Below, piece after piece: positions 5,326 to 29,630 of a stretch of DNA of 32,000 bases. Positions within the stretch are counted from its first letter, which is position 1, and each line of letters begins with the position of its first letter. The position numbers and the translations under genes were made by a program. This DNA comes from an uncultured archaeon (GTDB taxonomy: Archaea; Iainarchaeota; Iainarchaeia; Iainarchaeales; DATDZZ01), in NCBI GenBank assembly GCA_964373795.1, contig CAYJVY010000005.1:23846-55845 (forward strand), written 5' to 3'. A model generated the notes under the pieces. The model saw only the letters and a list, made by a program, of their open reading frames with translations. It did not search any database and was not told the DNA's origin.

Positions 5326-5347
5326 ACACAAACATAGTAGTGATTAT

Positions 5348-9100: not shown

Positions 9101-12100
9101 GGGAAGAACTTCAAGGCAAGGAAAAGTTGAATTAAATTTACCTCCTCAAAACCCTGGAGACAAATTAATTTTGAAAACTCAAAAAGAATTATTTAATTCA
9201 GTTGAACAAGAAATTTTAGTGAAAAAAGAAATTGTTTCATTCAATCCTGCAACTGTAGGAGTAAGCGTTAACATTAAAACAGTTCAACAAAAAGATGAAA
9301 TAATTAATGCAAGAAATTTAACTAATTTTCCTGTAAAAATTAATTCAATTCAAGTAACTGGAAACTTTAAAGGAGTATTAAATGAAGAAGAAATGAATAA
9401 ATTCTTGAAACAATTTGAGGGAACTGTTTTAGAGCCAAGCGAATCAAAAGAATTAATTTTAAGAACAGTTATTTCAGAGGAAGGAAAATTATTGAATGAA
9501 AGAACTGATTTTAAGTCAACTTTAAGAATTGGAGTGGAAAACTTTGGACAAATTTGGAGCTTTGAATTACCTGTAACAATTGCTGTAGGCATTGGAGCAG
9601 AAGTAGAAAAACCTGATTGCTTGAAGTTAAGCAAAACTGAGTGGAAGATTTCAAGTGAAGGCCAACCAGTTTCAACTGAATTTGAAATAAAAAATGACTG
9701 CGTTGTTTCAGGGAAACCAATTCCTTTAAGAAACTTGCAAGTAAAATTTAATCCTCAAGGAAACATTTTAGGAGAATATTTATTAGAAATAAAAGAAGAC
9801 ACTATAACTAAAGCAAAAGTAAATGTTCGAAGCGCGTTCTTTAAAAACATTGTAGCAATCTTAGATCCAAATAAAAGATATTCAGCTGTTTTAAGTTTCA
9901 CTCCAAACGGAGGAGTAAATGGAACAGCTAAAGGAACACTTCTTTTAAGTGCAGAAAATAAATTGGATTCAGGAGATCAAGTAATTGAATCAAATCTTGA
10001 AACAGAGGTTCCAATAGTGAATTTAAGGGAATGCATTTCATTCTCAAATGATTTAGTTATAATAGATATTTCTAAACCAGAAGGAGAAAGAAAAGGATCT
10101 TTTAAAATTGATACTGATGGCTGTGGAGGAAAAACTGAATTCAAGTTTGATTCAAAGCTAGAAATTTTAACTGGAAAAAATGTTTCATTAAAAGAAAAAG
10201 ATTCAAAAGAAATTGAAGTATTTGCTGGAACAAATTTTGCAGGACAATATCCTTTAAGAATTGAAGTAAAGCCTTCTCATACAACTACTTTTAGGAATGC
10301 TAAAATGATTAGGGTTCGCTTGATTGATCCAAATAGTTGTGTAACATTAGATAAATTTGAATTCGAAGTATTCAAAGAACCTGGAAATGATTTCTCTGGA
10401 TATGATACAGCTGAGTTAACAAATAATTGTTTAGAGAAAAGAGTTCAAGTAAAATTAAACATGAAAAGCTGGAGAGATGCAATTGAAACAGGGGCTATTT
10501 GGGGAATAGCTGCATTTGCAGTTGGAACAGTTTCCAGAGCAGCAGCTGGAGATGAAGAAGAAAAAACAGACGGAGAAAAACCAAAAGATAAACAACCTGC
10601 AGCAGATCCTACAAAAACTCAAGTAACAGATCAGAATCAAACAGATCAAAATCAACAAAAAAAAGGAGGAGGAATTTTTGCGTGGATAACTAATGTATTG
10701 GGCCTTGGCGGAAGAGACAAAAATGCAGGCCCTGAACCAGCAACTCCTGGTAAGCCAGCAGGAGATAGTGATAATCAAACATCCGCAAGCATTCCACAAA
10801 CTGTTTTAAATAATCTTCCTTCAGGAGCCACAAATATAAATATAATTAACGAAACTATCAATGAATATAACGTAGAATATACATTGAACGGAGTAAAAAA
10901 AACACAAGTAATTGATCTTCAGGCTATAAGAACTGGAGTGACTTCAGGAGACGAACATCAAGCAGTGGCTGGAACTGCTTTGGTTTCAGGGATTACTGCT
11001 TTGGCTGGAGCTGAAGATACTGGAGCTCAATTAGGTGGAGCAGCAGGAGATGCTTTAATTGGAGGAGTCTCGAAAGGAATTGGAAACATGTTTAGTGGAA
11101 TGCTTGGAGGAACTGCTCCATGGGTTTCAGGTTTGGCTACTTTTGCTTTAATGACTGGATTAACTTATTTAAATCAAGGAACTACAACAGTTGAAACAAC
11201 TGTTAATGATATTGGGTTAACTCCTGATAAATTTAAAATGTTGAAGGAAACTGGAAAAGATGGAGACTTTGATGAAAGAGTTAGCGTTAAACCAGAAAAA
11301 GAATCTTTTAGACCAAATCCAAAAGATAATAGATTGAAAGTAAAGGAATTGGGTTTGACTTTTAAAAACGAGCAACCAGGAAAATGGACTGGAGATATTT
11401 TTAGCGTATTAGATTTGAAAGGAGATCAATGGCAGTATAACACTGATAAAGAATATAAAGCTTCTTCAGGGTTTTGGGATAGAGCAAAGAAAAGAATTTC
11501 AGAAAACAAAATAGATAAACAGCTTTTCCCATTCAATCAAAAATTCCATTTACAGTTAACTTCAGTGAATCCAAGAGATGTGAACTTTGAATTACCTCCT
11601 ACAGGGCCTGCATGTGAATTACTTGGAGGAGGAACAGGAGATACAGGACCAAACGCTGTTGGCTTGCCAAGAATTGGTTTAGCTCATGCAAAAGAAATTG
11701 GATGGAATTGGGACGACTTTCCAGCTCCTACAAGCACTAATCCAAAAGGCTTGCCAATTAATGGAAAGATTTGTGATGTAAGCGATTCAAATGACTTTAT
11801 TTACTGTGATGCAACTCAATTCAGTATAGCTGTTTTAAGAAAAGTTGAAACTCTAAGAAAATTTTTAGAGCAATCAAATAATTCATTTATTTGTCCTGCA
11901 GCAGAAAAAGCTGCTTCAACTAAAACAAATACAGTAAAAGAAGACAATGTAGGAATTAGCTTGCTTGAACCAGTAAAACAAGGAAACGATGTAAACATTG
12001 AAGTAGAAGTATTCAATAACAATCAACAACAAATGGAAGTAGAATTAATTGTAAAAGTTTCCGGGCCAAATTATTCAAAGGAAGAAAAAAAGCAATTAGG

Positions 12101-13682
12101 AAAAATCACTAAAGAAAAAATTGGGTTTGCATTCACTGGATTAGGAGCAGGAGATTACACTGTTGAAGCAAGAATTAATCCAAACACTCAGTCTTGCACT
12201 GTTTGCTTTGATAAAGAGCCAAACGATAACATTGTTTTAAGTTCTTTCACTATTGGAGCAAGCGGTGGATTAACTAAATGTAAACCAGGAGATTATGAAG
12301 TTTATAATACTAAAAATTTAATTGAGTTCGTGGAAGCAACTGAAGAAGCAAAAAGAAATGTGACCTATACAGGCATTAGTAATAATGTAAAAGAGCAAAA
12401 AAAAGAATACTTGGCTTCTTTAATTAATTTCCAGTCTTATTTAATGTTTGATAGATTCTCTAAAGACTTTCAAGAAGACTTTGATGAATATTATAAAGCA
12501 AGGGCTTTTGCTCAAGCTCCTTCAGATTACAGGGATAGCAAGACAGGTTTAGGAGTCTTATTTAGAGATCCAAGTAAATTCAAGTTTGAGAGTAGATTAG
12601 GACAAACTCCTCCAACTGGTTTAGAGGTTTCACCTGGATTATATCAAGTGAATTTAGAAATTGAATTTGAAAACGATTCATGGCAATTGTTTAAGAATGA
12701 CAGGCCTTCAGCAGTAGTGCATGTAAAAATGCAGAAAATTAAGGCTCCATCTCCTGATTCGCCTTTTTATTACATGCCTTTTGATGGATTACTAGGAGAA
12801 GGAAATGAAAGAATTAATTACGGAGTAAACTTTGAAGGCGATCCAGATGTTAAATTAAATAATGACGATAAAATGATTGTTAAAACACTTGACAGGCCTG
12901 GATCAAATGCAGTGAAAGACGTTAAAGTGAATTTCTCTGACGCGTTCACTACTTTAAATGTATTTAATAGGGGAAGCATTTTAAGTGTAGCTCAAGGAGA
13001 AAAAATTGATTTAACTTTTAGTCCAAGTTATGCAACTCCAGTAATAATGAAGGTAGAGAATAATCAACAAGATGCTTGGGCGTTTTACTCTGTTGCAATA
13101 AATAATTCCACTGTTCAATCAAATACAGGGCCTCAAAACCTTTTATGGAATGGAATTGGATTGCAATGCTTAGACTTTGAAGGAAGAGCAATAAACGATA
13201 TTTACAGAGAATTTGCAGATGAACATGCAGTTGCAGGGCCTCCAACAATTCAATGTGCAAAAGTTGGAGATAATAAAGATGTAATTTATGGATTAGAATG
13301 GTGTGGCCCTGATCTACCTAAATCTGGAAACATGTTTTTGAAAACAGTTATTTTTACTCCTCAAGGACAAACATCAATACTGCAAAGAGAATCAGGAAAC
13401 GATAAAGTAGAATTTTATAGTCCTGTTGAAGCAAGTTATGGAGAAAAGATTTCATTAGGAGGAACTCCAACAAGCAATATTCCTACAGGAGCAAAAAAGA
13501 TTGAAAAAAATAATAATTTAGACAGGCTTCAATCAATTCAAGACATTTTCAAACTAGTAAGAGAAGGACATGTATGTATTAGTGGAACAGGAGCAAAATC
13601 AGAATTTGTATGGAATACAAAACCATTATATGATTTCCTAGTAGAACAAGAAAAACAAGCAATCAATCAATGTATTAGATAA
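6186..13682 (+). CDS. Giant membrane-anchored surface-type protein, paralog 2 (2498 aa)
   Basis: Uninterrupted 7.5-kb ORF with a GTG start and GGTG Shine-Dalgarno motif. A hydrophobic anchor FALLILILLALLLFAGVTLL (nt 6318-6377) follows a 44-aa N-terminal tail. About 6 CarboxypepD_reg-like repeats follow, then the conserved central and C-terminal modules shared with paralogs 3 and 4. Confidence 0.95.
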   Translation: MGIAEGISKFYYSLEAKYYGVLDKINEKIPIYALIDPIDRFAPSFALLILILLALLLFAGVTLLNTIPIQVTENDLTVIVLDEKGSVLEEADVKVVFQSKDFPKKTNKKGEAIFSVPSNAQLSIEISKDKFEAIKKEIKFQGKNQIEQVNLIAVKEEEQQKIFFVKDERGKALKDARVTFTCSDKSARQPDAQTTDFSGKLKIAVPSNCGELTFSARLEKFKNLDGVKADKTTIVLQPDEARVGKITVGITSNGKNLDGVEVHVYRFNEEELGPEKTVHSANGLAVFDNLFAGEYIVRVNAESGFGPFKSEKISLTSGQEKNTQVKLDKKPIGKILVKVLQEKNKLPLEKAKVKLRKGSEELGATDSNSDGIAVFDITEDSEYEVVVDHSDYLVRAVSGVKKDLLREISLEKFTGENGGTLKVKVVDSKGNSVHGAIVALYDMDAKQVSIYEEQSTDLNGVASFTRVQSGNYKALAFKESAKGSSDAQRFDRRLSAQITLRATLIIEDSQVEVIVKDEEGVAVSQARVTLFDEFNDKVVGSDFTSAEGKIVFENIPADKAVYVKVTKEKTSFYSASKKVLPKETVSFNAFIEKRPPLGEVKVKFLGLYKAGEKVESLKEGVVTNVATGERYAARFRVIIPEENDYSEVGLHVRTGTKEILEKDSLFIKAINGPLAEVKKGLSFNPSSGYQEDSKNVAFNDAKWVEFVWNKPTPGIYEFETLIEVKQNAKLDEKLSIFYRTWAIEKGDRKRDPEMPPSKNHPFYDDTEEVLYQVGITTLCDDAFCFDAQILNVGEKIVKSLAEELTYSADVFSNYNLKFNLLNNTEFGENPHTNAFLRIRNPEENLVFERFELNLGDKGKKSGTLNASAFEDQQVEVFEAKERLIADIDFKTQKSGNGAIVIELVSDNQVVFSKQIIVNVSSTKDLDVKFDPRELASGVQNKLSIEVRDKLTGVEVEKALVSVLDRHKIELTKGRTSRQGKVELNLPPQNPGDKLILKTQKELFNSVEQEILVKKEIVSFNPATVGVSVNIKTVQQKDEIINARNLTNFPVKINSIQVTGNFKGVLNEEEMNKFLKQFEGTVLEPSESKELILRTVISEEGKLLNERTDFKSTLRIGVENFGQIWSFELPVTIAVGIGAEVEKPDCLKLSKTEWKISSEGQPVSTEFEIKNDCVVSGKPIPLRNLQVKFNPQGNILGEYLLEIKEDTITKAKVNVRSAFFKNIVAILDPNKRYSAVLSFTPNGGVNGTAKGTLLLSAENKLDSGDQVIESNLETEVPIVNLRECISFSNDLVIIDISKPEGERKGSFKIDTDGCGGKTEFKFDSKLEILTGKNVSLKEKDSKEIEVFAGTNFAGQYPLRIEVKPSHTTTFRNAKMIRVRLIDPNSCVTLDKFEFEVFKEPGNDFSGYDTAELTNNCLEKRVQVKLNMKSWRDAIETGAIWGIAAFAVGTVSRAAAGDEEEKTDGEKPKDKQPAADPTKTQVTDQNQTDQNQQKKGGGIFAWITNVLGLGGRDKNAGPEPATPGKPAGDSDNQTSASIPQTVLNNLPSGATNINIINETINEYNVEYTLNGVKKTQVIDLQAIRTGVTSGDEHQAVAGTALVSGITALAGAEDTGAQLGGAAGDALIGGVSKGIGNMFSGMLGGTAPWVSGLATFALMTGLTYLNQGTTTVETTVNDIGLTPDKFKMLKETGKDGDFDERVSVKPEKESFRPNPKDNRLKVKELGLTFKNEQPGKWTGDIFSVLDLKGDQWQYNTDKEYKASSGFWDRAKKRISENKIDKQLFPFNQKFHLQLTSVNPRDVNFELPPTGPACELLGGGTGDTGPNAVGLPRIGLAHAKEIGWNWDDFPAPTSTNPKGLPINGKICDVSDSNDFIYCDATQFSIAVLRKVETLRKFLEQSNNSFICPAAEKAASTKTNTVKEDNVGISLLEPVKQGNDVNIEVEVFNNNQQQMEVELIVKVSGPNYSKEEKKQLGKITKEKIGFAFTGLGAGDYTVEARINPNTQSCTVCFDKEPNDNIVLSSFTIGASGGLTKCKPGDYEVYNTKNLIEFVEATEEAKRNVTYTGISNNVKEQKKEYLASLINFQSYLMFDRFSKDFQEDFDEYYKARAFAQAPSDYRDSKTGLGVLFRDPSKFKFESRLGQTPPTGLEVSPGLYQVNLEIEFENDSWQLFKNDRPSAVVHVKMQKIKAPSPDSPFYYMPFDGLLGEGNERINYGVNFEGDPDVKLNNDDKMIVKTLDRPGSNAVKDVKVNFSDAFTTLNVFNRGSILSVAQGEKIDLTFSPSYATPVIMKVENNQQDAWAFYSVAINNSTVQSNTGPQNLLWNGIGLQCLDFEGRAINDIYREFADEHAVAGPPTIQCAKVGDNKDVIYGLEWCGPDLPKSGNMFLKTVIFTPQGQTSILQRESGNDKVEFYSPVEASYGEKISLGGTPTSNIPTGAKKIEKNNNLDRLQSIQDIFKLVREGHVCISGTGAKSEFVWNTKPLYDFLVEQEKQAINQCIR
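6411..7955 (+). other. Array of about 6 carboxypeptidase-regulatory-like (prealbumin-fold) beta-sandwich repeats in giant 2
   Basis: Recurrent units of about 80 aa fit the pattern G-K-I-x-V-x-V...G-x-x-L-x-G-A/V-x-V...(D/N)-x-x-G-x-A/V-x-F..L..G-x-Y-x-V-x-V. Examples are GKITVGITSNGKNLDGVEVHVY...ANGLAVFDNLFAGEYIVRVNA and GTLKVKVVDSKGNSVHGAIVALY...NGVASFTRVQSGNYKALA. Confidence 0.65.
10491..11171 (+). other. Mid-protein hydrophobic helices of giant 2, separated by a low-complexity insert of about 190 aa
   Basis: GAIWGIAAFAVGTVS (10491-10550) and APWVSGLATFALMTGLTYL (11115-11171) flank an acidic, Q-rich and Gly/Ala-rich sequence (EEEKTDGEKPKDKQ...TDQNQTDQNQ...GGAAGDALIGGVSKGIGNMFSGMLGG). Confidence 0.55.
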
Positions 13683-13726
13683 TTGAGTTAACTAAAAGTG
13701 AAACTGTAATTTTTTAGGGTATGTGA

Positions 13727-16700
13727 ATGGGGTTAACTGATGTATTTCAGGGAAAAAAAGTAATTGCATTAGCACTGATTTTAATAGTTGTTATAATAGC
13801 TGGTTATTTCTTTTTCAGTGGAGGCCTTGGAGGAGGAGAAAAGGGAAGTATTACTTTAAAGTTTTTAGAAGACGAAAAACCTTTAAAAGGAGTTAAAGTA
13901 AGTGTTACTTTTGAAGGTGAAAAAAAAAGCTTTACTTCAAATGAAAAAGGAGAAGTAATAATTACAGATATTTTGCTTGGAACACGAATTAAAGCTGAAG
14001 CAGAATTAGAAGGGTTTCAAAAAATTTTAAGAGAACTTGAAGTAAAACAAGCTGATTTAAAGTTAGAAGTTCAAATGCCTTCAACTGAAATTAAGAGAAC
14101 TCAAATAATTAAATTAGTTCAAGGAGAAGATGAAAGTCTTTTAACTAAAAAAGCAACTTATAGTTTGAGTTGCACTAATTCTGAAGGAAAAGTAGAGCCT
14201 TCAACTGGAAGTGTTTCAGATGGAGTAATTAAAGCTGTTTCAACAGAGAAATGTGGAAGCATTTTATTACAGGCTTCAGCAGATGGATTTATTTCAGTGC
14301 AATCATTTGAAGTGAAAAATGCTTCAGAAAAAGTTTTATTAAAAGAAGTAGAGGTTTCAACTGGAAAAATTAAAGTAACAGTTAAAGACGATGAACAAAA
14401 ATCTTTAGACGGAATTAGAATTCAAGTATTCAATGAAAGCGGAGTAGAAAAATTCACTGAATCAAGTGTGCAAGGATTAAAAGTTATTCCTGAAGTGCAA
14501 ACAGGAGAATACTATGTAAGTGTTTCAGATTCAAAAGATGTATTCGGTACACAGAAAAGCGTTGTAAAAAGAGTGAACAAAAATCAAGAAACTCTTTTTG
14601 AATTTGTTTTAAGTAAAAGCATTAAAGGAAAAATTAATGTAAAAGCAATAGATGATTCAACTAAAGCAGAATTAAGTAATGTAAAAATTCAGTTATTCAA
14701 GAAAGGAGAAAACACTCCAATTTCAGATGATTCAACTAAAGCAGGGGAAAAAGTTAGTTTTAGTATTACTGAAAAAGGGTTATACATTGTTAGAGGTTTA
14801 TTGGAAGGATTTTTGTATGGAGAAGAAGAAGTTGATTTAAGTGAAGGAGAAAAAGATATTACTTTAAAGCTAGTGAAAGCAACTCCAGAGAATAGTGGAA
14901 AAATAGTTGTAAGCATTAAAGATGAAGATAACAAGCCAATTGAATCAGCAGAAGTATTTGTATTTGACGGAGTAACTGATTTCTTGTATCCATTTGAATC
15001 AAAGTTAAGTGATGCAAACGGAGAAACTAGATTTAGTGGATTAAAAGAAGGAACTTATTTCATGAAAGCAGTGAAAGGAAATTTGGAAGCAATTTCTTCA
15101 AAGAAAAAAATTGATATTAGAAAAGAATTTCCTTTTGAAATTAAAATGCAAAGAGGAAATGGAACTCTTTCAATTGAAGTAGTTGACTTGGATAACAAAT
15201 CAATTCCTAATGCAAGAATTCAATTACATTTGGTTGGAGAAACAGATATAAAAGAAGCTTTAGGAAACCCTGAAGGAAAATCAGAGATTTCTTTGAAAGG
15301 AGATTCAAGAGTTTATGTAAGGGTTTCAGCTGAAGGCTTTGCAGCATTTTTTTCTCAAGCAGTTCCAATTGAAGCAGGAGAAGAAGCAAAAATTAAAGCA
15401 GTGTTAGAGAAAACAATTCCTGGAAGAGATCCAAAAATTAAGTTGCTTGGAATTTTTGTAGATGAATCTTCCCAAATAGAGATAACTGAATTAAAGCCTG
15501 GAACAAATTATATTGCTAGACTGCAAGTAAAAATTCCTGAAAACGCTGATTACAGAAAAGTAGGAATTCATTTTAGAACAGGAAAACTTCCTTTAATGGA
15601 GCAAGACAATATTTTAATTAAAGAAGTAATTGCTCCAAACGCAGATGTAAGAAAGGGAACAACATTTAATCCTCCATTAGGACAAGCAATTGATTTAAAG
15701 AATATTTCTTTTGCTGAAGCAAAATGGGCAAACGTTGTATTAAGAGATGTAGAAAAAGGAGTCTACAATATTGCTGTAAGTTTAAGAGTTAAAACTCAAG
15801 TAGTGCAAGGAGATGACTTGCCTTTTTATTACAGGGTTTGGGCGGAAACTCCTTCAAAAGAATTTTTAAGAGATCCAATTGATTCAGAACTAGGAAATGC
15901 TAGAAGCACTTCAACTAAAGAAGAATTATATGCAGAAGCGTATAGTAAAAGACAGTCAGCTGGCTTGCCATCTGTTTGTGATGAAACATTTTGTTATTCA
16001 GGGGAAAGAATTCTAGATTTAGAGGATAAGAAATTCAAACTAGTTCCATATGATGTAAGCGTTTTTGGAGTGCATAAATTCTTTTTCGAAATAACAAATA
16101 ATAGTGAAACAGTTCACGATCGCGCGGAGATTAGAATAAAGAATTTTGTTGAAGGAAAACTAGTGGATGATGCATTAGAATTAATTGATTACAAAATAGT
16201 GAATGCAGATGCAAAAGAATTCAAGTCTTCAGGAATTTCATTAAACAAGTTGCCTGAAATAGAGTTAGGAAGTTATACTAGAAATAAAACAGTTAAAGGA
16301 GAAATAACTTTTATTCCAAAAAAAGTTGGAAGAACTAATTTACAGTTAGAAATTGTTAGCGGAATAAGAGTTGGATCAGATGTAGGAGGATCAAAGGTTT
16401 TTGAAAAAATTATTCCAATAAATGTTTTAGCAAATAAGAAATTAAAGCTTGAATTAAAGCCAAGCATTTTACCTTCATTTATTGATAACAAGGTTGAAGT
16501 AAAAGTAACAGATGAAGAAAGCATTACTTTAAAGAATGTAAAATTAAGGGTTTCTAAAATCACTCCAGCAAATGTGAGAATAAAAATTGGAGAATTTTAT
16601 TCCAATGCAAACGGAAATGCTTTTTTCACTTTGCCTTCTTCAAGTCCTGGATCGAAATTCATTGTTGAATCAGAGTTAACTGGATTTGAGTCACAGAAAA

Positions 16701-19700
16701 CTGAGGTAAAAATTGCTTCAGAAATCGTTGCATTTGATCCATTGCCCCCAAATCCATTAAAATTAGAGTTGCAAACAATTGGAATAGATGAAGACACTGC
16801 AACAATTAAAGCAACTAATTTAATTGATGCTCCATTGAAATTAAAGAAAGCATTTGTTTCAGGGTATTTTAAAAGCTATTTAGATGAAGCTGCAATGAAT
16901 AGATTCTTGCAAGGATTTGTTGAAACAACTGAGTTAAAAAAAGACGAAGAACAAAATTTGAGTTTATTGAAAGCAAAACTAGTTAATGCATTACAATTAT
17001 TTGAACCAGATAAAGTTAAAGGAGAAATAAATTTAGTGTTTGAATCAGTGAAACTTGGAAAGACTTGGGCTTTCAGCATTCCATTTGAAGTAAGCGTTGA
17101 AATAGGAAAAGGTCCTTCAGCAGATAATTGCTTGGTTTTAGAACCAGTTCCATTGTCAAGCATTCCTAAATGGAATTCAGTTACTCAAGGGGAAAGAATT
17201 GCAAATGAATTCATTTTATATAATTCTTGTAAAATTAATGGCAAACCAGTTGAAGTAAGAAACTTGAAAGCAGGAATTGAATGGAAGGGAAACAAGATTG
17301 GAGATGTGCAGTTAACTTTAACTGATCAAGAAGAACATACAGCTGTTCCGCCTGAAACTTTAAGAGAAGGAGAATTCACTAATCCTTTTATTGAAATAGT
17401 TAAAGCACTTCAAAAAGGAAGTTCAGGCCCGCAATACACTGGAATTTTGTATTTCACTCCAAAAGCAGGACATGAAGGAGAGGATACTTCTTTCACTGTA
17501 AAAATTAGAGCAGAAATTGGAACAAATCAAGGCCCTAAAGAAATTTCCACTACTCAAGACATTACTGGAAACATTAAAGTAATTAATTTAAAGGACTGTT
17601 TAGAGTTAACCCCTACCCCAGAAGAAGGATTAAAGATTCCAGCTACTTCTTTAGAAGGAGAAGGATTTTTTGAAATTGATTCAACTAAATGCGGCCCTGC
17701 AACAATTCAAATAAGTATTTGCAGAGGAGACGATGGTTGTAGAGGAAACCCTCAAATAAAAGAAGGCGGATTAAGAGTTGAACCAAAAACATTTAATTTA
17801 AGTAAATCAAAGCAAAAGCAAAAAATTAAGTTAAAAAAAGAAGAAGGAATTCCAGGAATTTACGGAGTAACAATCTTTGCTTCTCCAGGTGGAAGTAATT
17901 TTGTTCCAGTGAAAACACTAGATGTATTAATAGAACCAAATTTAGATGAACATTATTTTTGGTTAGACAAATATGAATTCAGCGTGATTGGAAGAGAAGG
18001 AAAAGATTCAACTGCGTTGTTTAACACTCAATACAAGGAAAATGTTTCAGTTGAAGCAAAAAGAAAATATCATGGCCAAGCAGCAGGAAATAATGCAACA
18101 AAAGCTTTTTGGACTGGAGCAATTGCAGGAGTTGGAACAGGAGCTGCAACAGTTGGAGCATTAATTGCAGCAGAAGCAACTGTTCCAGTAATTGGATGGA
18201 CAGCAGCAATTGTAACAATAGTTGTATGGGCAGCTGTTTCATTTTTAACTTATCAAAAAAATAAAGATAAAGCAAACGAATTAATTACTAAAAACTTTGA
18301 AGACTATGTAATTGAATTAACTTCAGATAGAAGAGATGTATTAATTGAAGGATTAGATAATAAAATTAAAGCTGAATGGAATACAAAATACAATAATGTT
18401 TTCTCTGATTCAAGAACTGGAAAAGTAACCCAAATAAATGCATTAAAATTTTTAAACGATGGAAATCTTTCCAAGCCTCAACTAAGTTATGGAATACTAA
18501 ACGTTAAAGCAATTGAACATATTCATGGAGATCCAACTCATAAAGCTGCAAGAGTTTTATGTGGAAACAGCGATTTTTGGCATTTCAATATTCCAAGTTC
18601 TTGTAGCGGTGCAAGAGATGAATTAGTTTCAAAGAAATTCCATGTAAGATTTAAAACTCAAGAAGAACCAGAGCCATTGCCTGAATTAAATTTTGAAACA
18701 TTTGAATGCAAAGCAGGAGCTTTAAGAGGGGTTACAGGAAAAGGAGCTAATCCAAAAATTAAATTGGATTGGGATTGGGATAAAATTAAAGTTGATTCAT
18801 GTGATGCAAACAATCCTGAAACATTTTACTGTGATTCAACTCAGTTTTCAATTTCTTTAGTGAAAAGATTAAATAAATTAAAAGAATTTTTCGAGAGAAA
18901 CCAAGGAGTATTTGAATGCCCTCCTTCAATAAGCGATGCATACGATAAAGCTAACAATCAAGAATCAAGTAATGTAGTTAAAAAAGACTTTATTGGAATT
19001 TCAAAACTTGAAACAAAATTCTATTCAATTGAAAACGATGCAAACGCAATTGTATTCTTAGACAATAAAACAACTTCAGATCAATCAATTGATTTAACAG
19101 TAAATTTGAAAACACTAGACAATGAAGTAATTAAAGATGTTTGCGAGAAAAAAGCAATTGCATTAAAGCCTGGAACAAATAAAGTTGGATGTGAATTTAA
19201 AGCAATTCAAAAAGGAAATTACTTTATTGAAGCATTAATTACTAATAGTTCAACTCAAAACTTGGATCCATTTGAACCAACTATTTCAATAATAGTTCAA
19301 GATGAGCCTTTAACTTCAACTGTAAATTCGACTTGTAAAGTAATTAAAACAACTGAAGACTTGCAAGGATCTCCAATAATAATGGCTTTCATTGAAGCAC
19401 AAGAAAAAGCAGGAAAAAAAGTAGAATATTCAACTGATACTCCAACAGAGGATTGGATTAATAATAAAGAAGAATTATTGAATACAATTAAATTTGATGC
19501 ATTTTTAATGAAGGACGGATATTCAAGTGATTTCAGAAAAGACTTCATTAGATTTTATACTACTCAAGCACTCCCTAAAGCTCCAGACTACTTTGATAAC
19601 ACTACTGCAGGAAAAGGAAGATTTAAAGATTTCTTTGAAGACAATGAAAAACTTGTTTTCACTCAAAAGTTTTTTGAAAGAAATTCAACTCTTGATTCGC

Positions 19701-20761
19701 CTGGAAGATATAGAGTTGAATTAATGGGTTACTTTAAAGATAAATGGGAATTCTTTGATTCTCAAGGAAAACCAAATGCATTAATGATTGTATCATTTTA
19801 CAGGTTAAACGATCCACAACCAAACTCTCCATTCTATTCCATGCCAATAGATGGATTAGTGGGATTAGATGGAACAAGTCTTGAAAGACAAGGATATGGA
19901 ACTCAATTCTTAAACAAAAGCGATCAAATAGCTTTCAATAAAACTCTTGCAACTCAAGCAGCTAAAACTTATGCAGATGCTGGAAGCAATGCAATTGCAA
20001 GGGTTTCAACTCAGGTTGGCGCGGATTACAGAAAACTAAACTCTGATTTAGGTTTTAGAGGAAATTTATTAAACATTATTAGAAGTCCAAGCGGAGAAAT
20101 GGAATTAGATTATTCTCCAAATTATGCTACTCCAGTAATATTGAAAATGAGTCATGCAATTGATCCAAATAAATTCGGAGCATACTATGTATTAGAGGAT
20201 TCAAGAAAAGGAGGAGTAGAAGTAGGAGGAACACTAAATTACTGGCAAGGATTAGGAGCATGCATTGACTTTTCAGGCAAACCAGTATTTGAAGCATTTG
20301 ATTTTGCTCCTGATAGATCTGCAAAAGCTGAAGACAGAATTCCAAACTGGGAACAATCTTATACAACTCAATGGAATGAATCAATTAAGGAAGGAGATGT
20401 TTATTTAAGAACAGAGTTTTACACTCCTATTGGCTCTACTGCAACTCTAAGATTAATTCATCCAACAACTAATGCAAAATTCATTTCCTCTAACACAAAC
20501 GATAAAGGCGAAAGCACTGTAACACTTAACGGAATTAATGGAATGGAATTCAATAACCCAACTGCTGCAAACAGGATTTCCTCAATTCAAGACATTTTAA
20601 GTTTAGTTGAATCAGGAAATGTATGTGTAACAAATAATGGCTTGCAATCAAGGTATTGGTGGAATCCAAAAAAATTATTCAACCAAGGACAAACAAAACT
20701 AGAAGTAATTGCTACAGGACTTGGAAGAGATTCAAATGCTCAATATAGATGCATTGGGTAA
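13727..20761 (+). CDS. Giant membrane-anchored surface-type protein, paralog 3 (2344 aa)
   Basis: Uninterrupted 7.0-kb ORF starting 44 nt after giant 2. N-terminal anchor VIALALILIVVIIAGYFFF (nt 13760-13816), CarboxypepD_reg-like repeats, and collinear conserved blocks shared with paralogs 2 and 4. Confidence 0.95.
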   Translation: MGLTDVFQGKKVIALALILIVVIIAGYFFFSGGLGGGEKGSITLKFLEDEKPLKGVKVSVTFEGEKKSFTSNEKGEVIITDILLGTRIKAEAELEGFQKILRELEVKQADLKLEVQMPSTEIKRTQIIKLVQGEDESLLTKKATYSLSCTNSEGKVEPSTGSVSDGVIKAVSTEKCGSILLQASADGFISVQSFEVKNASEKVLLKEVEVSTGKIKVTVKDDEQKSLDGIRIQVFNESGVEKFTESSVQGLKVIPEVQTGEYYVSVSDSKDVFGTQKSVVKRVNKNQETLFEFVLSKSIKGKINVKAIDDSTKAELSNVKIQLFKKGENTPISDDSTKAGEKVSFSITEKGLYIVRGLLEGFLYGEEEVDLSEGEKDITLKLVKATPENSGKIVVSIKDEDNKPIESAEVFVFDGVTDFLYPFESKLSDANGETRFSGLKEGTYFMKAVKGNLEAISSKKKIDIRKEFPFEIKMQRGNGTLSIEVVDLDNKSIPNARIQLHLVGETDIKEALGNPEGKSEISLKGDSRVYVRVSAEGFAAFFSQAVPIEAGEEAKIKAVLEKTIPGRDPKIKLLGIFVDESSQIEITELKPGTNYIARLQVKIPENADYRKVGIHFRTGKLPLMEQDNILIKEVIAPNADVRKGTTFNPPLGQAIDLKNISFAEAKWANVVLRDVEKGVYNIAVSLRVKTQVVQGDDLPFYYRVWAETPSKEFLRDPIDSELGNARSTSTKEELYAEAYSKRQSAGLPSVCDETFCYSGERILDLEDKKFKLVPYDVSVFGVHKFFFEITNNSETVHDRAEIRIKNFVEGKLVDDALELIDYKIVNADAKEFKSSGISLNKLPEIELGSYTRNKTVKGEITFIPKKVGRTNLQLEIVSGIRVGSDVGGSKVFEKIIPINVLANKKLKLELKPSILPSFIDNKVEVKVTDEESITLKNVKLRVSKITPANVRIKIGEFYSNANGNAFFTLPSSSPGSKFIVESELTGFESQKTEVKIASEIVAFDPLPPNPLKLELQTIGIDEDTATIKATNLIDAPLKLKKAFVSGYFKSYLDEAAMNRFLQGFVETTELKKDEEQNLSLLKAKLVNALQLFEPDKVKGEINLVFESVKLGKTWAFSIPFEVSVEIGKGPSADNCLVLEPVPLSSIPKWNSVTQGERIANEFILYNSCKINGKPVEVRNLKAGIEWKGNKIGDVQLTLTDQEEHTAVPPETLREGEFTNPFIEIVKALQKGSSGPQYTGILYFTPKAGHEGEDTSFTVKIRAEIGTNQGPKEISTTQDITGNIKVINLKDCLELTPTPEEGLKIPATSLEGEGFFEIDSTKCGPATIQISICRGDDGCRGNPQIKEGGLRVEPKTFNLSKSKQKQKIKLKKEEGIPGIYGVTIFASPGGSNFVPVKTLDVLIEPNLDEHYFWLDKYEFSVIGREGKDSTALFNTQYKENVSVEAKRKYHGQAAGNNATKAFWTGAIAGVGTGAATVGALIAAEATVPVIGWTAAIVTIVVWAAVSFLTYQKNKDKANELITKNFEDYVIELTSDRRDVLIEGLDNKIKAEWNTKYNNVFSDSRTGKVTQINALKFLNDGNLSKPQLSYGILNVKAIEHIHGDPTHKAARVLCGNSDFWHFNIPSSCSGARDELVSKKFHVRFKTQEEPEPLPELNFETFECKAGALRGVTGKGANPKIKLDWDWDKIKVDSCDANNPETFYCDSTQFSISLVKRLNKLKEFFERNQGVFECPPSISDAYDKANNQESSNVVKKDFIGISKLETKFYSIENDANAIVFLDNKTTSDQSIDLTVNLKTLDNEVIKDVCEKKAIALKPGTNKVGCEFKAIQKGNYFIEALITNSSTQNLDPFEPTISIIVQDEPLTSTVNSTCKVIKTTEDLQGSPIIMAFIEAQEKAGKKVEYSTDTPTEDWINNKEELLNTIKFDAFLMKDGYSSDFRKDFIRFYTTQALPKAPDYFDNTTAGKGRFKDFFEDNEKLVFTQKFFERNSTLDSPGRYRVELMGYFKDKWEFFDSQGKPNALMIVSFYRLNDPQPNSPFYSMPIDGLVGLDGTSLERQGYGTQFLNKSDQIAFNKTLATQAAKTYADAGSNAIARVSTQVGADYRKLNSDLGFRGNLLNIIRSPSGEMELDYSPNYATPVILKMSHAIDPNKFGAYYVLEDSRKGGVEVGGTLNYWQGLGACIDFSGKPVFEAFDFAPDRSAKAEDRIPNWEQSYTTQWNESIKEGDVYLRTEFYTPIGSTATLRLIHPTTNAKFISSNTNDKGESTVTLNGINGMEFNNPTAANRISSIQDILSLVESGNVCVTNNGLQSRYWWNPKKLFNQGQTKLEVIATGLGRDSNAQYRCIG
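13844..15405 (+). other. CarboxypepD_reg-like repeat array in giant 3
   Basis: Example repeat units: GKIKVTVKDDEQKSLDGIRIQVF...QTGEYYVSVSD; GKIVVSIKDEDNKPIESAEVFVFD...ANGETRFSGLKEGTYFMKAV; GTLSIEVVDLDNKSIPNARIQLH. Confidence 0.65.
18104..18253 (+). other. Mid-protein transmembrane hairpin of giant 3
   Basis: AFWTGAIAGVGTGAATVGALIAAEATVPVIGWTAAIVTIVVWAAVSFLTY is two adjacent hydrophobic helices with a short turn, followed by a basic QKNKDK. Confidence 0.6.
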
Positions 20762-20783
20762 GAAATTAATGAGTGAAAACTAA

Positions 20784-23700
20784 ATGCCTTTAAACGAAGA
20801 ATCTTTCATGGCTCCAGCTCCGGAAAATAAGTTACTTGAATTATTGAAAGAAAAAAAAATACTGATTGCAGGAGTAATAGCTGTAATTGTTTTAATTGCA
20901 GTAGCTTATTTTTTTGTCTTGCCTTTGCTTTCACAAAAAAATTCAAATGTAATTCTTTCATTAAAAGATCAAGAAGGAACAATTCTTCCTTCAACAACTG
21001 TTTCAATTAAAGTTAATGAAACTGTAAAAAATTTTTCAAGCGATTTAAAAGGATTAATTCCTTTAACTGTTCCATTGAATGCAAAAATAAGTGTTTCAGC
21101 TGAATTAGATGGATTTGAAAAAGTTAATCAAAGTTTGACTGCAAGCAATGCAGAAATGAGTAAAACAATTACTTTTTACAAGATTTCAAAGCTTTTAAGT
21201 AAAACAATTGTTTTACAAAACCTTGCAGGAGAAATGATTAACAAGGAAGGGAAAATAAATTTTTCTTGCTCTAATTCAAAAATCACTGCACCTCAACCAA
21301 TTGACACAACAACAAGTGGAGCAATTAGGGTTACGCCTCCAGAAGGATGTGGGGATTTAATTGCAGAAGTAATAGTGAAAGGATTTGCTTCAAAGGATTC
21401 AGTGAAAATAGTTAATGCAACTGAAGTAATAGAGTTAAGCGCTGAAAAACCTAAAACAGGAACTATAAAAATTTCAGTTAAAAACAAGGCTTCAGAAGCA
21501 TTAAATGGAATTACTGTAAAACTTTTTGCAGACAGCGGAGTAATTAATTCAGTTATTTCAAACACAGGAATAGCAGAATTTAATGAAGTAGAAGTAGGAG
21601 AATACTTTGTTTTAACTGAATCAAATCCAGATTATGTTAGCGGGCGAACAGAAAAATTTCAAGTAAAAGAAAACGAAGTAACTGAAAAAAACTTAGTGTT
21701 AGAAAAAGAAAGAACTGCAACACTAGAATTTGAAGTAACAGATAAAAACAGTCAAGCAAAAATTTCAAACGCAAAAGTCAGAATTGAATTGCAAGAAAAA
21801 AAGTTTTTGGAAGAAAAAAATTCTGACAAAGACGGAAAAGTTGTATTCACTTTATTTGATGTAGGAAAATTTAAAGTAACTGTATTACATGAAGAATTTT
21901 TATTTGATGAAAAAGAAATTCAAGTCAACAAAGGCGAGAATAAGGAAAAAATTTCTTTAGAAAAGCTTTCCCCTGAAAACAGTGGAAGAGTCTTAGTTAC
22001 AGTTAAAGATGAAGACAATGAAGTAGTGGAAAACGCTAGAGTAAATATTCTTGATGCGAAAACAAAGTTTTTGTATCCCTTGCCTAAGGTGTATTTCACT
22101 AATGCAGAAGGAAAAGTAGAGTTTTCAGGAGTAAAAGAAGGAAAATATTTTGTAAGAGTTTCAAAAGCAAGAACTGAAGCTGACTCAAAAGCATTAAATG
22201 TAAGCAAAAGAGGAATAACAGAATATGAAATAAAAATGGTTATAGGAGAAGGAGTTGTAAGCATTAAAGCAGTTGATGCAGATAAAGCTCCAGTGCCAAA
22301 TGCTTCAGCTGAATTCTTTGATGAAAAAGGAAAATCTTTAGGAAAAATTGATTTAGGCCCAGAAGCTGAAAGAGATTTCACTACTAAAGCGGATAAAAAA
22401 GTTTTCATTCGAGTTTCTGCTTCAGGATATAGTAGTTATGTAACTTTATTACATGAAGTAATTCAAAACAGAAAAATAAATGTTTTAGCTCAGTTAGAGA
22501 AAACAATTCAAGGAACAAAACCTTCAATTGATTTTATAGGATTATTTAATTCAACTGATTCAGATAAAAGAATTGAAAAACTTGAAGCAGGAAATGCTTA
22601 TATTGCAAAATTCCAGTTAAAGATTCCAAAAGGATTAAAGCTAAAAAATGCAGGAGTCTTTGTTAAAACAGGCGAGGATTCATTAGTTCAAAACGATAAT
22701 ATTTTCATTAAAGCAATTAATGCTCCAAACTCTTCAAAGATTAGGGGAACAACTTTTAACGAGCCAAAAGGATATGCAATTGATTCACAAAACTTAACTT
22801 CAGAAAACGCTAAATGGGTTCAAATAATTTTGCAAGACCCTGAAGAAGGAATTTACAATATTGCAGTAGAATTAAGTGTAAAAATTAGAACTGTTCCAGG
22901 GGAAAGACTTTCAATTAATTACAGAGCATTTGCTGAAAACGATGCAAGAGAAACTTTAAGAGATCCTGAAGACAAAGAATTAGGTTTAGCGGAAAACTCT
23001 GCAAACAAAGAAGGCTTGTATGCTAATGCAACTATTTTAACTTATTTAGAAGGACAAAAAGAGGAATGCACTGAAGAATTTTGTTACGGAGGAGTAACAT
23101 TAGAGGAATCAGTTTCAAGGCTTACTTTAAGACAACAGCCATTTGAAGTATTTGTTTTTTCAGAAAACAAATTATTTTTCTATTTAATAAATAATTCTGC
23201 AAAAGATTATTTAGATCCAGAAATCAGGTTTAAAAGTTTGGATAAAGCAATTAAAATTACTTCATATAAAATAACTGATGCTTCTGCAAAACAAGTAAGC
23301 AAAAACAATCAAGAATTATTTGAATTCAATGAAAAACTTGGAAACTTTTCCAAAAACAGAGCAATTAAAGGAGAAATTGATTTACAAGCACTTGACCCCG
23401 AAGAAAAAGAATTAAAGCTTCAAATAGTGAACAAAGGAAACATTGTTTTTGAAAGAGAAATAAAATTTAATGCAAAAGTTTCAAACAAATTAACTATTAA
23501 ATCATCTCCAACATTTTTGCCTGCATTCAAGAAAAATGTTTTAAACGTTGAATTAATTGATGAACAAGAATTAGGTTTAAGTAATACTAAAGTGAAATTC
23601 AAATTAATTTCTCCTGAAAGAATTGAAAGATTCATTGGAAGTGAGTTAACAGACGGATTAGGAAAAGCTGTATTCAAAATAGGAAATTTAAGTCCTCAAT

Positions 23701-26700
23701 CAAAACTCAAAATCGAAGTAGAAAAAGCAGGATATCAATTCACTCCAGTACTAGTTCCAGTGGAATTAGATTTAGTTGACATTACTCCTTCAGAGGTAAG
23801 CTTGGCTTTAGAGTCTTTAGGAATGAGAAGAAAAGAAAAAACAGTTGAAGCATTAAACAAAATTGATTTACCTTTACAAATAACTGATGCAAGACTAATA
23901 GGAGTGTTTAGGCAAGTAGATGTAACTGCAATGGAAGGACATTTGAAAAACAATGTAGTAGGAAAAATTCTCTCTCCAGGAATTCCAGAAAAAATCAAGC
24001 CATTAATTGAAGTAAGCATTTCAGAAGGATTACAAGAAGACTTAGAATCAGCTTCCTATGTTGGAGAAATTTTGTTAGTGTTTTCAAATAAAACAATTGG
24101 AAAGCAATGGCTGAAAAGAATTCCATTCAAATTAGATTTAGGTTTAGGAGGAGAAATAAATAATGCTCCATGTATTTTCTTTGATACTTCAGAAAAAATT
24201 GAAAAAACTATTTTACAGTCAAGCTTTGAAGAAAAATTCACTATAGTTAATAGATGTAAAAACACTGCAGGAAACAGTAAACTGCAAAACTTGAAAGCAA
24301 AAATTAATTGGACTGGAAAAGACGGGCCAATAGGAATAGTTTCATTAGAAGTAACTGAAACTGCAACTCAAAACAAGGTATTCAATCCATTAATTGAAGG
24401 AGAAGAAATAATTTTTGCAGCTCCGTTTAGAAATGAAAGTGGATTAGATAGTTCAAGTTATTCAGCTATTTTAAGTTTCACTCCAAATGAAGACACAATA
24501 AATAAAAAAGCAGAATTTCAAGTAGAGTTTTTCGGAGAAGCTTTAACAGATCAAGGAAAAGAAATTATTAGATCAAAGCCAACTCCTTTAACAGTAAAGT
24601 TATTGAATACTAATTTACAGAACTGCATTAAATTTGATACAGAAGAACAAAGAGGAAGAGTTTTATTAAAACCAGATGCAAATGAAGCAATCTTTAAAGT
24701 CGATTCAAGTGAATGTAAAAACGTGGAATTAGAGTTAAAGATTTGTGGAGGAGACTCAGATAAATGCAGAGGAAACGCAGTAGATGGAGGAATAAAAGTT
24801 GCTCCATGGAGTTATGGAAAAATTTTAGAAAAAGAAGTTTCATTCAAGGTTTCCAGGCCAACAGTAGAATTTGTTCCAGGAATTTATGGAATTGAAGTAT
24901 TTGCAAGACCTGTGCAAAAATCTGGCGGCACTCCTCCATGGCAATTAATAGGAGTAATTGATGCAATTCTTGATGTAAAAAAAGAAGATACAGATAAATA
25001 CCTGAATTTAGAAAAATATGAATTCACTTTAGTTAATCCAACGAAAAAAGATGAAACAGCTTTATTCAATGAAAGATTAATGGAAAATGTTGATGTAACA
25101 GCTGATTACTGTGCATGGGATAAAGCAAAAAGATATGCAAACACTTTTGTAAAAATAGGAGAATGGTTTGATGAATTAAACGAATCTCCTACTGGATGGA
25201 TAATGTTTATTGCAGAAATAGGAATCGCAGCAATAGTAATCGATGTAGTTCTAGATTTATTAGATCAAATATTTGGAACTGATTGGGCTGACGGGTTTTC
25301 AAAAATCTTAGGAAAACTAGAAATATTAGATGACTGTGAAGACAGAGATCACACTGGAACACTTCAAGACTATGTATTAAATTTAGTGGAAAATGGAGGA
25401 AGTACAAAACTTGTTTCATTAGAGGGAAGAGTTAAATCAAAACCAGTTATAGGTCCAGCAGGAGAAGCAAGAATTTCAAGGCCAAATGATTTTCCATTAG
25501 AAAAACTTGGAATTGAATTGGAAAATAAATCTCTTGAAGAAGGATTAATTCATTACGATATTTTGGAAATAAGTGGAACAGAGCATGTAAGAGGAGCAAG
25601 GCCTTACAGTGGCGGTGCACATTTAAAGTGCAGAGATGGATTTGGTCCATTCAATGTTAGAGGAGCTTGTGGAGGTTATTCTACTCGCACTAAAACAGAA
25701 AAATTTCATGTAAGAATTAACACTATTTCTCCTACTCCAAAATTAAGAGAAATTAGATTAAATGAAATTTCTTGTATTGGAGATGGAAAACAAGGAAAAA
25801 CAGGAAAAGATGCTCTTCCAAAAGTAAAGTTAAACTGGAGCTGGGATGAAAAAACTCAAAACGGAATTTCAATTAATGAATGCGATGCAAACAATGAAAA
25901 AGCAGTTTACTGTGATGCAACTCAGTTTTCAATAATGTTTGCAAAAAGATTGAATGCAATAAGTGATTTTTTAGAGAAAAACAAAAATAATTTAACTTGC
26001 CCTACAGACAGTACTTCAAAAACTGAGGAAAAAAATAATTCAAAAAAAGAGTCAAAACCAGTATTTTTAACTAAAGAAAAATTCGGGGCAACAGAATTTG
26101 AAACAATCTTTAAAGGAGTGGAAAACAATTTAATTGTAAGAGTAAAATATGAAAACGATTTAAAACAAAAAATTGATTTAAATGCAGTTATAACTTTAAA
26201 CAAATTAATTATTGAAGCAGGAGAAGAAAGAGAAGTAAGCAAGTGTAAAAAAGATTTAAGCGTTAACTCAAAAGACTTTGGAGTAATTGAATGCCAATTC
26301 AATGACTTAGCAAAAGATGAATACTTTGTATCTCTTTCAACTGAATCGCAAAACAAAGCTGATTTAGATGATTGGAATCCAAAAGAAAACATAATTGTAA
26401 TAAGCGAGCCAACTAGATTGCAGGGATGCTGGCTTCCAAAAACAACTGCTCCTTTAGGAGGCGAACCAACTTTAATAAAATTCTTGGAAAACTCTTCAAA
26501 CATTACTTATACTGCAGACATTAATTCAAAAGAACAATTAACTAACATGCTTCACTTTAATGCATTGCTAATGAGGGATGGCTTTTCAAGTGATTTCAGA
26601 CAAGATTTTGTAAATTATTATAAAAACCAGTCTTTCATGAATGCCTATCCATGGTTTTTCAATAATACTGGTGGAAGAAATATTGAAAAATATTTTTCAG

Positions 26701-28557: not shown

Positions 28558-28923
28558 ATGCTTCAATTAATGCCTTTATTATTTATTGGAGAATTTTTTT
28601 CAGATTTCACTTTAGTGTTAAAAATATTTGTTTTTCTTACAATTGTAAGCTTTGTTAAAAACCATGTAGGAAATAATGTTATTGCAATTGTAATAACTAT
28701 TTTGTTTAGCTGGTATGCATTGTTTGTAGCATTTGCTTTTTTTGGAACAATTTACTTGCTTTACACGTTATTGTTGCTAGGAGTAAGCGGAATTGTAATT
28801 GATTTCTTTTTTGTTTCACAGTCAGCTGGACATCAAAACTTGCAAGATAATTCCCCTGTTTCAAGTGGATATGATATTGTTAAAAGACAAGTAGCATCTC
28901 GACAAGCAATGATGAGAAGGTAA
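28558..28923 (+). CDS. Small polytopic membrane protein A (121 aa; the start may instead be the ATG at 28570)
   Basis: About 3 hydrophobic helices (FTLVLKIFVFLTIVSF, VIAIVITILFSWYALFVAFAFFG, IYLLYTLLLLGVSGIVIDFFFV) and a basic C-tail (KRQVASRQAMMRR). First gene of a tight same-strand cluster. Confidence 0.7.
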   Translation: MLQLMPLLFIGEFFSDFTLVLKIFVFLTIVSFVKNHVGNNVIAIVITILFSWYALFVAFAFFGTIYLLYTLLLLGVSGIVIDFFFVSQSAGHQNLQDNSPVSSGYDIVKRQVASRQAMMRR

Positions 28924-28930
28924 AAAAATT

Positions 28931-29628: not shown

Positions 29629-29630
29629 TT

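Follow-up and report, generated by a model that had tools for sequence, protein, structure and literature searches.

A mid-protein insert of seemingly type-dependent topology in a family of giant Iainarchaeota surface proteins

A 32,000-nucleotide stretch of DNA from an uncultured archaeon of the Iainarchaeota (assembly GCA_964373795.1, contig CAYJVY010000005.1, positions 23,846 to 55,845; hereafter the window, 31% G+C) carries four long open reading frames (ORFs) on its plus strand, g1 to g4. Three of them, g2 (6186..13682; 2,498 aa), g3 (13727..20761; 2,344 aa) and g4 (20784..27806; 2,340 aa), encode tandem giant surface proteins with C-terminal parts of 835-842 aa and pairwise identities of 25-33% over their whole length. 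A first-pass annotation of this DNA had noted that every complete giant contains, besides its N-terminal anchor, a second hydrophobic element in mid-protein, which it took to be a membrane hairpin between two extracellular halves and perhaps the scar of an ancient gene fusion. Having compared this element across the family, we lean towards reading it as a variable insert whose topology depends on the type of paralog, and neither as a universal topological divider nor as a fusion seam.

Translation of the ORFs confirmed every segment that had been listed, positions included. We scored the proteins by the Kyte-Doolittle mean over 19 residues (KD19) and by approximate apparent free energies of membrane insertion (dG_app, in kcal/mol) on the Hessa 2007 scale. 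The N-terminal signal-anchor helices, found at 6318..6377 in g2 (aa 45-64; KD19 3.07, dG_app about -5.0), at 13760..13816 in g3 (aa 12-30; KD19 3.08, dG_app -3.6) and at 20856..20930 in g4 (aa 25-49; dG_app -3.9), all on the plus strand as are the mid-protein features below, have a KD19 of about 3.0 and dG_app values from -3.6 to -5.0 kcal/mol. Together with the mid elements they are the only segments with a dG_app below 3 in the approximately 7,200 residues of g2-g4.

The mid elements themselves differ from one giant to the next. The g3 insert (18065..18280; aa 1447-1518) is reduced to a helix-turn-helix, in which helix 1 (18098..18172; aa 1458-1482; TKAFWTGAIAGVGTGAATVGALIAA), with a GxxxGxxxG pattern and a dG_app of +1.4, is joined by a turn of 5 residues to helix 2 (18188..18253; aa 1488-1509; VIGWTAAIVTIVVWAAVSFLTY; dG_app -0.9, KD19 2.1), directly followed by the basic stretch QKNKDK. 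In g2 the insert (10464..11189; aa 1427-1668), which lies between conserved pre- and post-blocks with boundaries defined by a hidden Markov model (HMM), is polar, rich in Gly, Gln and Pro, devoid of Cys and of any Pfam family, and its two weak helices (KD19 1.2-1.4) are 188 aa apart: helix 1 (10488..10547; aa 1435-1454; TGAIWGIAAFAVGTVSRAAA; dG_app +1.7, KD19 1.36), marginally hydrophobic and of the glycine-zipper type, carries the conserved type-A motif DEKDWxxAmKtGaxwGL, and helix 2 (11112..11171; aa 1643-1662; TAPWVSGLATFALMTGLTYL; dG_app +1.0), also marginal, lies in a region with the conserved type-A motif P....Gl.Gf.aGTL.aY..Qe.Gef. The g2 insert also contains candidate N-glycosylation sequons, NQT and NET. 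The g4 insert (25110..25346; aa 1443-1521), bounded by C1443 (25110-25112) and C1518 (25335-25337), has a single helix (25191..25262; aa 1470-1493; TGWIMFIAEIGIAAIVIDVVLDLL; dG_app -0.7) that holds E, D, D and D, and the position of its helix 2 is now amphipathic (IFGTDWADGFSKILGKLEIL; dG_app +7.5), its hydrophobic character gone. If a hairpin is taken to need two segments of at least about 19 residues with a dG_app of about +1.5 or less, then g3 (+1.4/-0.9) would have one, g2 (+1.7/+1.0) would be borderline and g4 (-0.7/+7.5) would have none. All these elements nevertheless align at one place, between the blocks 'LDKYEF..ENVxV' and 'TGTLxDYVINL', and this shared position argues against chance. 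A second hydrophobic element at a homologous position is therefore present in all three complete giants, as the first-pass annotation had said, while its uniform hairpin gives way to one of membrane grade in g3 only. An archaeosortase-like internal sorting signal in g3 (VPVIG, helix and QKNKDK) was considered and rejected, as orthologs end this helix with an acidic 'EDPCE'.

Clustering of the C-terminal modules sorts the family into three paralog types, A (g2), B (g3 and g4) and C (e.g. P0001), whose usual gene order A-B-C is conserved; by clustering and gene order g4 is a diverged type-B paralog that occupies the slot where type C normally stands. We then defined the insert, by HMM, as the region between the two conserved blocks in 85 genome-derived proteins and in 78 independent representatives, and found it to vary in length from 0 to 804 aa in the former and from 34 to 1,021 aa in the latter, almost always with one Gly/Ala-rich hydrophobic helix at its start and another at its end. 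Type-B inserts are 0-157 aa long, with one outlier of 402, and typically form a tight helix-turn-helix; the loop between the helices reaches 148-804 aa in type A and about 300-400 aa in type C. The median dG_app values of helix 1 and helix 2 are +2.0 and -0.4 in type B (helix 2 going down to -3.5), +2.4 and +2.4 in type A and +2.7 and +1.3 in type C, against a median of -3.6 for N-terminal anchors across the family, so that helix 2 of many type-B orthologs matches true anchors in hydrophobicity. The helices are of the glycine-zipper type, with 0.8-3.9 GxxxG motifs per helix region (0.22 in N-terminal anchors) and a zipper triplet in 48-100% of helix regions (7% of N-terminal anchors). In type B they are conserved in composition only and in type C residue by residue, which is the pattern expected of lipid-facing and of protein-packed helices, respectively. 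The loops are depleted in Lys and Arg (4.9-6.8%, compared with 7.5-10.3% in the flanking N and C parts). Five type-B proteins lack a hydrophobic segment or the whole insert (L006_5861, L053_5951, L005_1, L044_55 and L038_2372), the whole insert being deleted in one ortholog, and g4 belongs with these decayed forms that lack the hairpin. A Pfam search of the inserts of the giants and of the orthologous Cys-rich loops returned no family, the best match for g3 being SLATT_1 at a non-significant E=0.026.

Two peculiarities of the inserts may be recorded here. In the insert of L006 2-5815, helix 1 is separated from a strongly hydrophobic helix 2 (IIVAVVIIVAAIVISLLVA) by a wholly uncharged run of 80 Ala, Gly and Thr residues, for which neither side of a membrane seems a natural place. 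Moreover, several type-B and type-C proteins (L004 5927-12895, L011, L002 5915-13024, L029 1964-9160, L009 5933-12925, L010 5801-12985 and L062 5876-12640) have a CxPC or CGPPC motif right where helix 2 begins, which resembles the thioredoxin-like CxxC at a helix N-cap.

The cysteines of the insert bear directly on its topology. Inserts of types B and C open with 'C[DA]W.EA' and close with 'DPC'. Of these two clamp cysteines, 47 proteins have both, 3 have neither (g3 among them, in contrast to 29 of 31 type-B relatives) and 1 has a single one, while in 1 more the whole insert is deleted; the association has a Fisher p of about 1e-5, a value obtained with two further proteins outside types A-C corrected by hand and one that ignores shared ancestry. 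This paired presence and paired loss points to a disulfide that closes the insert, and such a clamp, retained by g4 as C1443 and C1518, would put both ends of the insert on the same, oxidising side. Cysteine totals are even in all three giants (22 in g2, 22 in g3 and 24 in g4) and conserved pairs occur in both halves, on either side of the mid element, as the first-pass annotation had stated. The inserts also have an even count in 94% of type-A, 93% of type-B and 81% of type-C proteins, and in 91% of the independent representatives. Type-A loops in eight genomes are made up largely of tandem six-Cys modules, C-x7-C-x5-C-x13-CC-x3-C, with 2-7 tandem regular-expression matches per loop, up to 76 Cys in approximately 800 aa and none of the CxxC spacing of zinc sites, and type-C loops have six conserved internal Cys. 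From their sequences, the type-A and type-C loops are best read as disulfide-rich and extracellular. The six-Cys module, of about 40 residues, was seen in L010 (ORF 2-5797), L066 2963-12004, L009 1-5943, L063, L067, L021, L018 and L045; it has no Pfam match and may be an undescribed disulfide-rich mini-domain.

The domains on either side of the insert agree with an external location. In Pfam, the N-terminal part of the giants consists of Ig-like beta-sandwich repeats (CarboxypepD_reg, Big_1, SpaA and bMG3; PF13620 at E=6e-29, 5e-24 and 9e-22), the CarboxypepD_reg, Big_1 and bMG3 matches of g2 being all N-terminal, and no Pfam family was found in the last 840 residues. AlphaFold2, run with 42 sequences, gave mostly beta models of g3 aa 1150-2344 (predicted local distance difference test, pLDDT, 83.6; predicted TM-score, pTM, 0.79) and of g4 aa 1240-2340 (pLDDT 81.8; pTM 0.77), in which the parts before and after the insert are confident within a single model, and the only long stretch with pLDDT <50 is the insert itself (aa 1454-1513 of g3, model residues 305-364; aa 1453-1516 of g4, model residues 214-277). 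The high pTM hints that, in these models, the flanks pack as one body and not as two independent halves. Foldseek searches of PDB and BFVD returned only generic Ig-like arrays among the top 50 hits listed, with TM-scores of about 0.1 (alpha-2-macroglobulin/C3, ciliary central-apparatus proteins, the SbsB S-layer protein and pili); no fusogen or pore-former was among them, and the flanks are beta domains with no helical bundle of the kind found in fusogens or colicin-type pore-formers. By Pfam and Foldseek together, the giants have the beta-sandwich repeats of surface proteins built from Ig-like or CarboxypepD_reg arrays. Given the Ig-like arrays of the N half, the confident and mostly beta model of the C half, the even Cys totals and the conserved pairs, both large parts are most likely extracellular, judging from sequence and models, and this part of the first-pass annotation is supported. 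The covarying clamp, the even totals and the confident modelling of both flanks in one chain likewise place the two flanks on the same side.

Our favoured account is as follows. The three giants would be paralogs (A, B and a diverged B') of a large uncharacterised surface-protein family of the Iainarchaeota, each held by its N-terminal signal anchor, and the mid element would be homologous in all of them, a site prone to insertion within a largely beta ectodomain, where the insert begins and ends with glycine-zipper helices and, in types B and C, probably has its ends held together by two cysteines. In type B, as in g3, the tight hydrophobic hairpin would most likely sit in the membrane of the cell itself, spanning it or dipping into its outer leaflet, as a second tether with both large parts outside. 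In types A (g2) and C, the two helices would instead form a pedestal that crosses no membrane and carries a long, fast-evolving extracellular module, either low-complexity or cysteine-rich, and in g4 the hairpin would have decayed to one acidic amphipathic helix within a still-clamped loop. For g3 and the majority of type-B orthologs, the data are most simply explained by a helical hairpin embedded in the membrane: the translocon should retain a helix that matches the N-terminal anchor in hydrophobicity, and the clamp of the orthologs fixes both ends on one side, so that helix 1 must return the chain. By the same logic, if the type-A loop is extracellular and both flanks are outside, its two helices cannot each span the membrane, and in g4 one acidic helix with clamp cysteines on both sides excludes a single crossing. 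For the family, and for g2 through its orthologs, the long loops with six-Cys modules or conserved internal Cys do not suit a spanning hairpin; the 5-residue turn of g3 does. The three-point tether that had been proposed for every giant therefore fits g3, as a type-B protein, and does not extend to the whole family, given the loop of g2 and the single helix of g4.

Several observations weigh against this account. AlphaFold2 did not model the hairpin itself with confidence. The turns of 19 type-B hairpins hold 4 Lys/Arg in 283 residues, with net acidic flanks, so that the positive-inside rule does not support a cytoplasmic turn, and some type-B arms (L013 and L015) have 14-17 residues and are too short to span; on both grounds a hairpin that dips into the outer leaflet is equally possible. 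The placement of type-A and type-C loops outside is drawn from Cys content and parity, and the loop of g2 itself has no Cys. Finally, the dG_app values are approximate, the Hessa 2007 scale having been re-implemented here and checked only on a few sanity cases.

The other explanations can be judged on the same evidence. The model of the first-pass annotation, applied throughout, has both helices span the cell's own membrane in every giant, with a cytoplasmic loop and three tethers. It is in keeping with the hydrophobic segments at homologous positions in all paralog types; marginal helices (here with dG_app of +1 to +2.5) can insert co-operatively as hairpins in polytopic proteins, and the g2 loop, free of Cys, could in principle be a disordered cytoplasmic loop. 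We nevertheless think it quite unlikely, as type-A loops contain six-Cys modules (up to 76 Cys) and type-C loops 6 internal Cys, with even parity in 81-94%, as g4 and several orthologs have one hydrophobic helix or none and yet keep the clamp on both sides, as the loops are depleted and not enriched in Lys and Arg, and as the type-C helices are conserved residue by residue, unlike lipid-facing transmembrane helices. The reverse proposal, that the helices lie in no membrane and are buried packing elements, for instance a core that the A, B and C paralogs would form as a hetero-oligomer and from which the insert merely emerges, is one that we also hold to be unlikely. Glycine zippers mediate tight helix-helix packing, type-C and type-A helices keep their individual residues, polar ones included (as in WGLQGF), the paralogs keep the gene order A-B-C, and the failure of AlphaFold2 monomers to place the helices would be expected if partners were missing; by contrast, type-B helices 2 such as IIVAVVIIVAAIVISLLVA or IGAVVGIIVFVIIIFMTIL are of the lipid type, poorly conserved and would be retained by the translocon, and in some genomes the type-B protein lacks the helices. 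That the segments are chance hydrophobic or low-complexity stretches of no shared origin is hardly credible: the g2 helices are indeed weak and the insert around them is of low complexity, but no other such segments exist besides the N-terminal anchors, they align at one position across all paralogs and over 160 relatives, and they contain conserved motifs.

A more adventurous alternative would make the hairpin a shielded, deployable element that inserts into the membrane of another cell on contact, with types A and C as variable recognition heads. Many DPANN archaea are episymbionts, which would suit such a role, and the Gly/Ala-rich composition and GxxxG density sharply unlike those of N-terminal anchors, the turn without Lys or Arg between acidic flanks, the disulfide staple at the base of the loop and the hypervariability of the inserts, as of contact surfaces, all speak for it. 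There are documented cases of secreted glycine-zipper toxins inserting from outside (PMC12744356, PMC12955049), and the hairpin could be likened to these, to fusion peptides or to colicin hairpins, although we give both the idea and the likeness little credence. Many type-B helices 2 are of anchor grade (down to -3.5), for which a Sec stop-transfer would be expected during export, the hairpin is dispensable in several genomes, the Foldseek hits are Ig-like arrays with no fusogen or pore-former among the top 50 listed, the flanking beta domains offer no amphipathic helical bundle for shielding, and host association is not known from the present data. The wider scheme of a cell-contact apparatus found throughout the phylum and built of the giants, the four small membrane proteins and the HerA-like ATPase, with the type-B hairpin entering the partner membrane and types A and C serving as clamped recognition heads, is in our opinion very doubtful.

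The suggestion that the hairpin marks an ancient fusion of two proteins found no support. No genuine half-genes were found among approximately 100 genome-derived genes or among the 150 listed of the 737 representative clusters, and AlphaFold2 is confident about the parts on either side of the insert within a single chain (pTM 0.79 and 0.77), which does not support a fusion point; we do not read the mid element as a fusion seam. Every short ORF in the 66 loci with relatives is either cut by a contig end, a frameshift piece or split by an N-gap: the apparent split gene of L001 (948 + 1,547 aa) merely reflects a stretch of N in the assembly, the 'half genes' of L025, L058 and L040 are frameshift pieces whose breaks are not at the insert, and six short representatives that were examined are contig-cut fragments without a genuine N terminus.

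As to the extent of the family, a word-index search with g3 aa 1101-2344 returned one relative, having probably been saturated by low-complexity words, and an exhaustive profile search gave 737 clusters at 50% identity, most of them 2,200-3,200 aa in length and 485 at E<=1e-30. In a scan of one genome per species, tblastn confirmed 133 relatives, spread over 66 loci. Almost all of these carry the label Candidatus Iainarchaeum, a DPANN lineage once called Diapherotrites, and among them are the complete AR10 genome and Ca. I. andersonii. Three contigs with typical family members (L026, L028 and L057) are labelled Chloroflexi bacterium or Thaumarchaeota archaeon and are probably mis-binned Iainarchaeota contigs. 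One relative is annotated merely as a 'carboxypeptidase regulatory-like domain-containing protein', PDB sequence searches were empty, NCBIfam gave no match for the giants, their small membrane neighbours (sm1-sm5) or the ATPase, and literature searches returned no description of the giant family or its gene cluster; both the family and its operon appear to be undescribed.

The two ends of the proteins are also characteristic. In all paralog types a strong transmembrane helix follows a conserved cytoplasmic tail of 10-55 aa (approximately 45 aa in g2), often with MGLKDLYYSLEDKYY..LDKI...IPVYKVIDPIDKVVPSF; the motif MG..(Y/F)Y.LE.KYY..LDKI...IP(I/V)Y..(I/V)DPID is common across the family. The form MGLKDLYYSLEDKYY..LDKI...IPVYKVIDPID is itself widely conserved and suggests a cytoplasmic binding partner. 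The C termini show no hydrophobic segment by KD19 or dG_app, and the giants thus do not have the canonical archaeal S-layer architecture of a cleaved signal peptide with a C-terminal transmembrane anchor or PGF-CTERM. All relatives have an invariant 'C-I' motif 2-6 residues from the C terminus (CIR, CIG, CILN, CIGYGN and others), located at 13671-13679 in g2, at 20750-20758 in g3 and at the end of the ORF in g4.

The fourth ORF, g1 (15..3407, plus strand), is open to the window start, with 1,130 aa in view. BLASTP motifs common with g3, and tblastn against the related loci, identify it as a distant colinear relative of the C-terminal module; the only colinear C-module motifs that it has in common with the giants are YCDxxQFSI, DF..DF and PxDGxxG...GYG, it carries approximately 400 extra residues, and a close ortholog was not found in the fetched loci. 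It may stand alone as a C-module protein or form the end of a further giant, and the position equivalent to the mid element falls outside the window, which places g1 outside the hairpin comparison.

Downstream of g4, the window encodes five small polytopic membrane proteins, sm1-sm5 (28558..30272, plus strand), without a Pfam or NCBIfam family, a coiled-coil protein (30310-30825, minus strand) and the start of a HerA/DUF87-like ATPase gene (31055..32000, plus strand; frame open at the window end). The first four, sm1-sm4, are conserved partners of the giant array: they occur in 44-50 of 67 related loci, in most of them just downstream of the last giant, sm1 coming after a short gap. A relative of the ATPase follows the giants in 33 loci, its DUF87 match in Pfam, made with the L001 ortholog, being weak (E=4e-4, below the cut-off). 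Archaeal Ced-type DNA-import and type-IV-secretion-like systems pair small membrane proteins with a HerA/VirB4-like ATPase, and the present layout may loosely recall them. In this window the array is interrupted by four toxin-antitoxin pairs, MntA/HepT (3659-4485), MazE-like with PIN (4635-5227) and VapB with PIN (5306-5989), all on the plus strand between g1 and g2, and PIN with MazE-like (27814-28457, minus strand) between g4 and sm1. In the L001 locus only, the last giant is separated from sm1 by a gene (14115-15392) for a NosD/beta-helix protein whose signal peptide is of the archaeal class III (type IV pilin-like) kind (QAALEYLMTYGWALILI). Neither Rfam nor tRNA scans gave a match in the window.

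To our knowledge, the envelope of the Iainarchaeota is essentially uncharacterised, and DPANN archaea are thought to depend on cell-surface contacts. The present analysis offers three handles on this envelope: a large phylum-specific giant family, a conserved operon in which three giants are joined by four small membrane proteins and a HerA-like ATPase, and a single disulfide-clamped site where a membrane hairpin, modules rich in cysteine or no insert at all would take each other's place in evolution. Should the type-B hairpin prove to be a second tether, the body of the ectodomain would have to lie flat on the membrane and not stand as a mast, which changes the picture of the envelope. More generally, a hydrophobic feature common to paralogs need not imply a common topology.

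Among known systems, the giants resemble archaeal S-layer glycoproteins (e.g. the Haloferax S-layer glycoprotein with PGF-CTERM, and other C-terminally anchored ones) in their large, beta-sandwich-rich and cysteine-poor ectodomains, and their Foldseek matches include the bacterial S-layer protein SbsB and alpha-2-macroglobulin-type arrays. They differ in an uncleaved-looking N-terminal signal anchor with a conserved cytoplasmic tail, in the absence of a C-terminal transmembrane helix or sorting signal, in the internal hydrophobic insert and in the presence of three to four paralogs in tandem. In SecDF/RND transporters, two close helices likewise return the chain between large external domains, a likeness that fits g3 and most type-B proteins; the giants, however, have one hairpin and one N-terminal anchor without a transporter core, a turn without positive charges and a glycine-rich, marginal helix 1, and among their paralogs the hairpin can be dispensed with or replaced.

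Transmembrane glycine zippers, the GxxxGxxxG helices of channel-forming proteins and toxins, and secreted glycine-zipper toxins such as EsxX (PMC12744356) share with the giants short hydrophobic helices dense in GxxxG and small-xxx-small patterns. No sequence or profile homology to these proteins was found, and the helices of the giants are embedded in a 2,300-aa ectodomain where they bracket a variable module, outside any toxicity or immunity context, the nearby toxin-antitoxin pairs being unrelated RNase-type modules. Viral envelope V loops and the fusion loops of class II/III fusogens and archaeal fusexins are also Cys-closed, hypervariable and sometimes hydrophobic loops on a beta-rich domain, whereas the loop of the giants can be a hydrophobic hairpin of 2 x 20 residues or a module of up to approximately 1,000 residues, and no fusogen matched their structure among the top 50 Foldseek hits listed. 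Finally, the SPEARE proteins of Nanohaloarchaeota (PMC6642349) are likewise very large, lineage-specific, membrane-anchored and presumed to act in surface interaction. The giants, by contrast, lack protease, restriction-endonuclease or adhesin domains, and are set apart by their phylum-specific C-terminal module (the YCDATQFSI family) and by a conserved operon that also encodes four small membrane proteins and a HerA-like ATPase.

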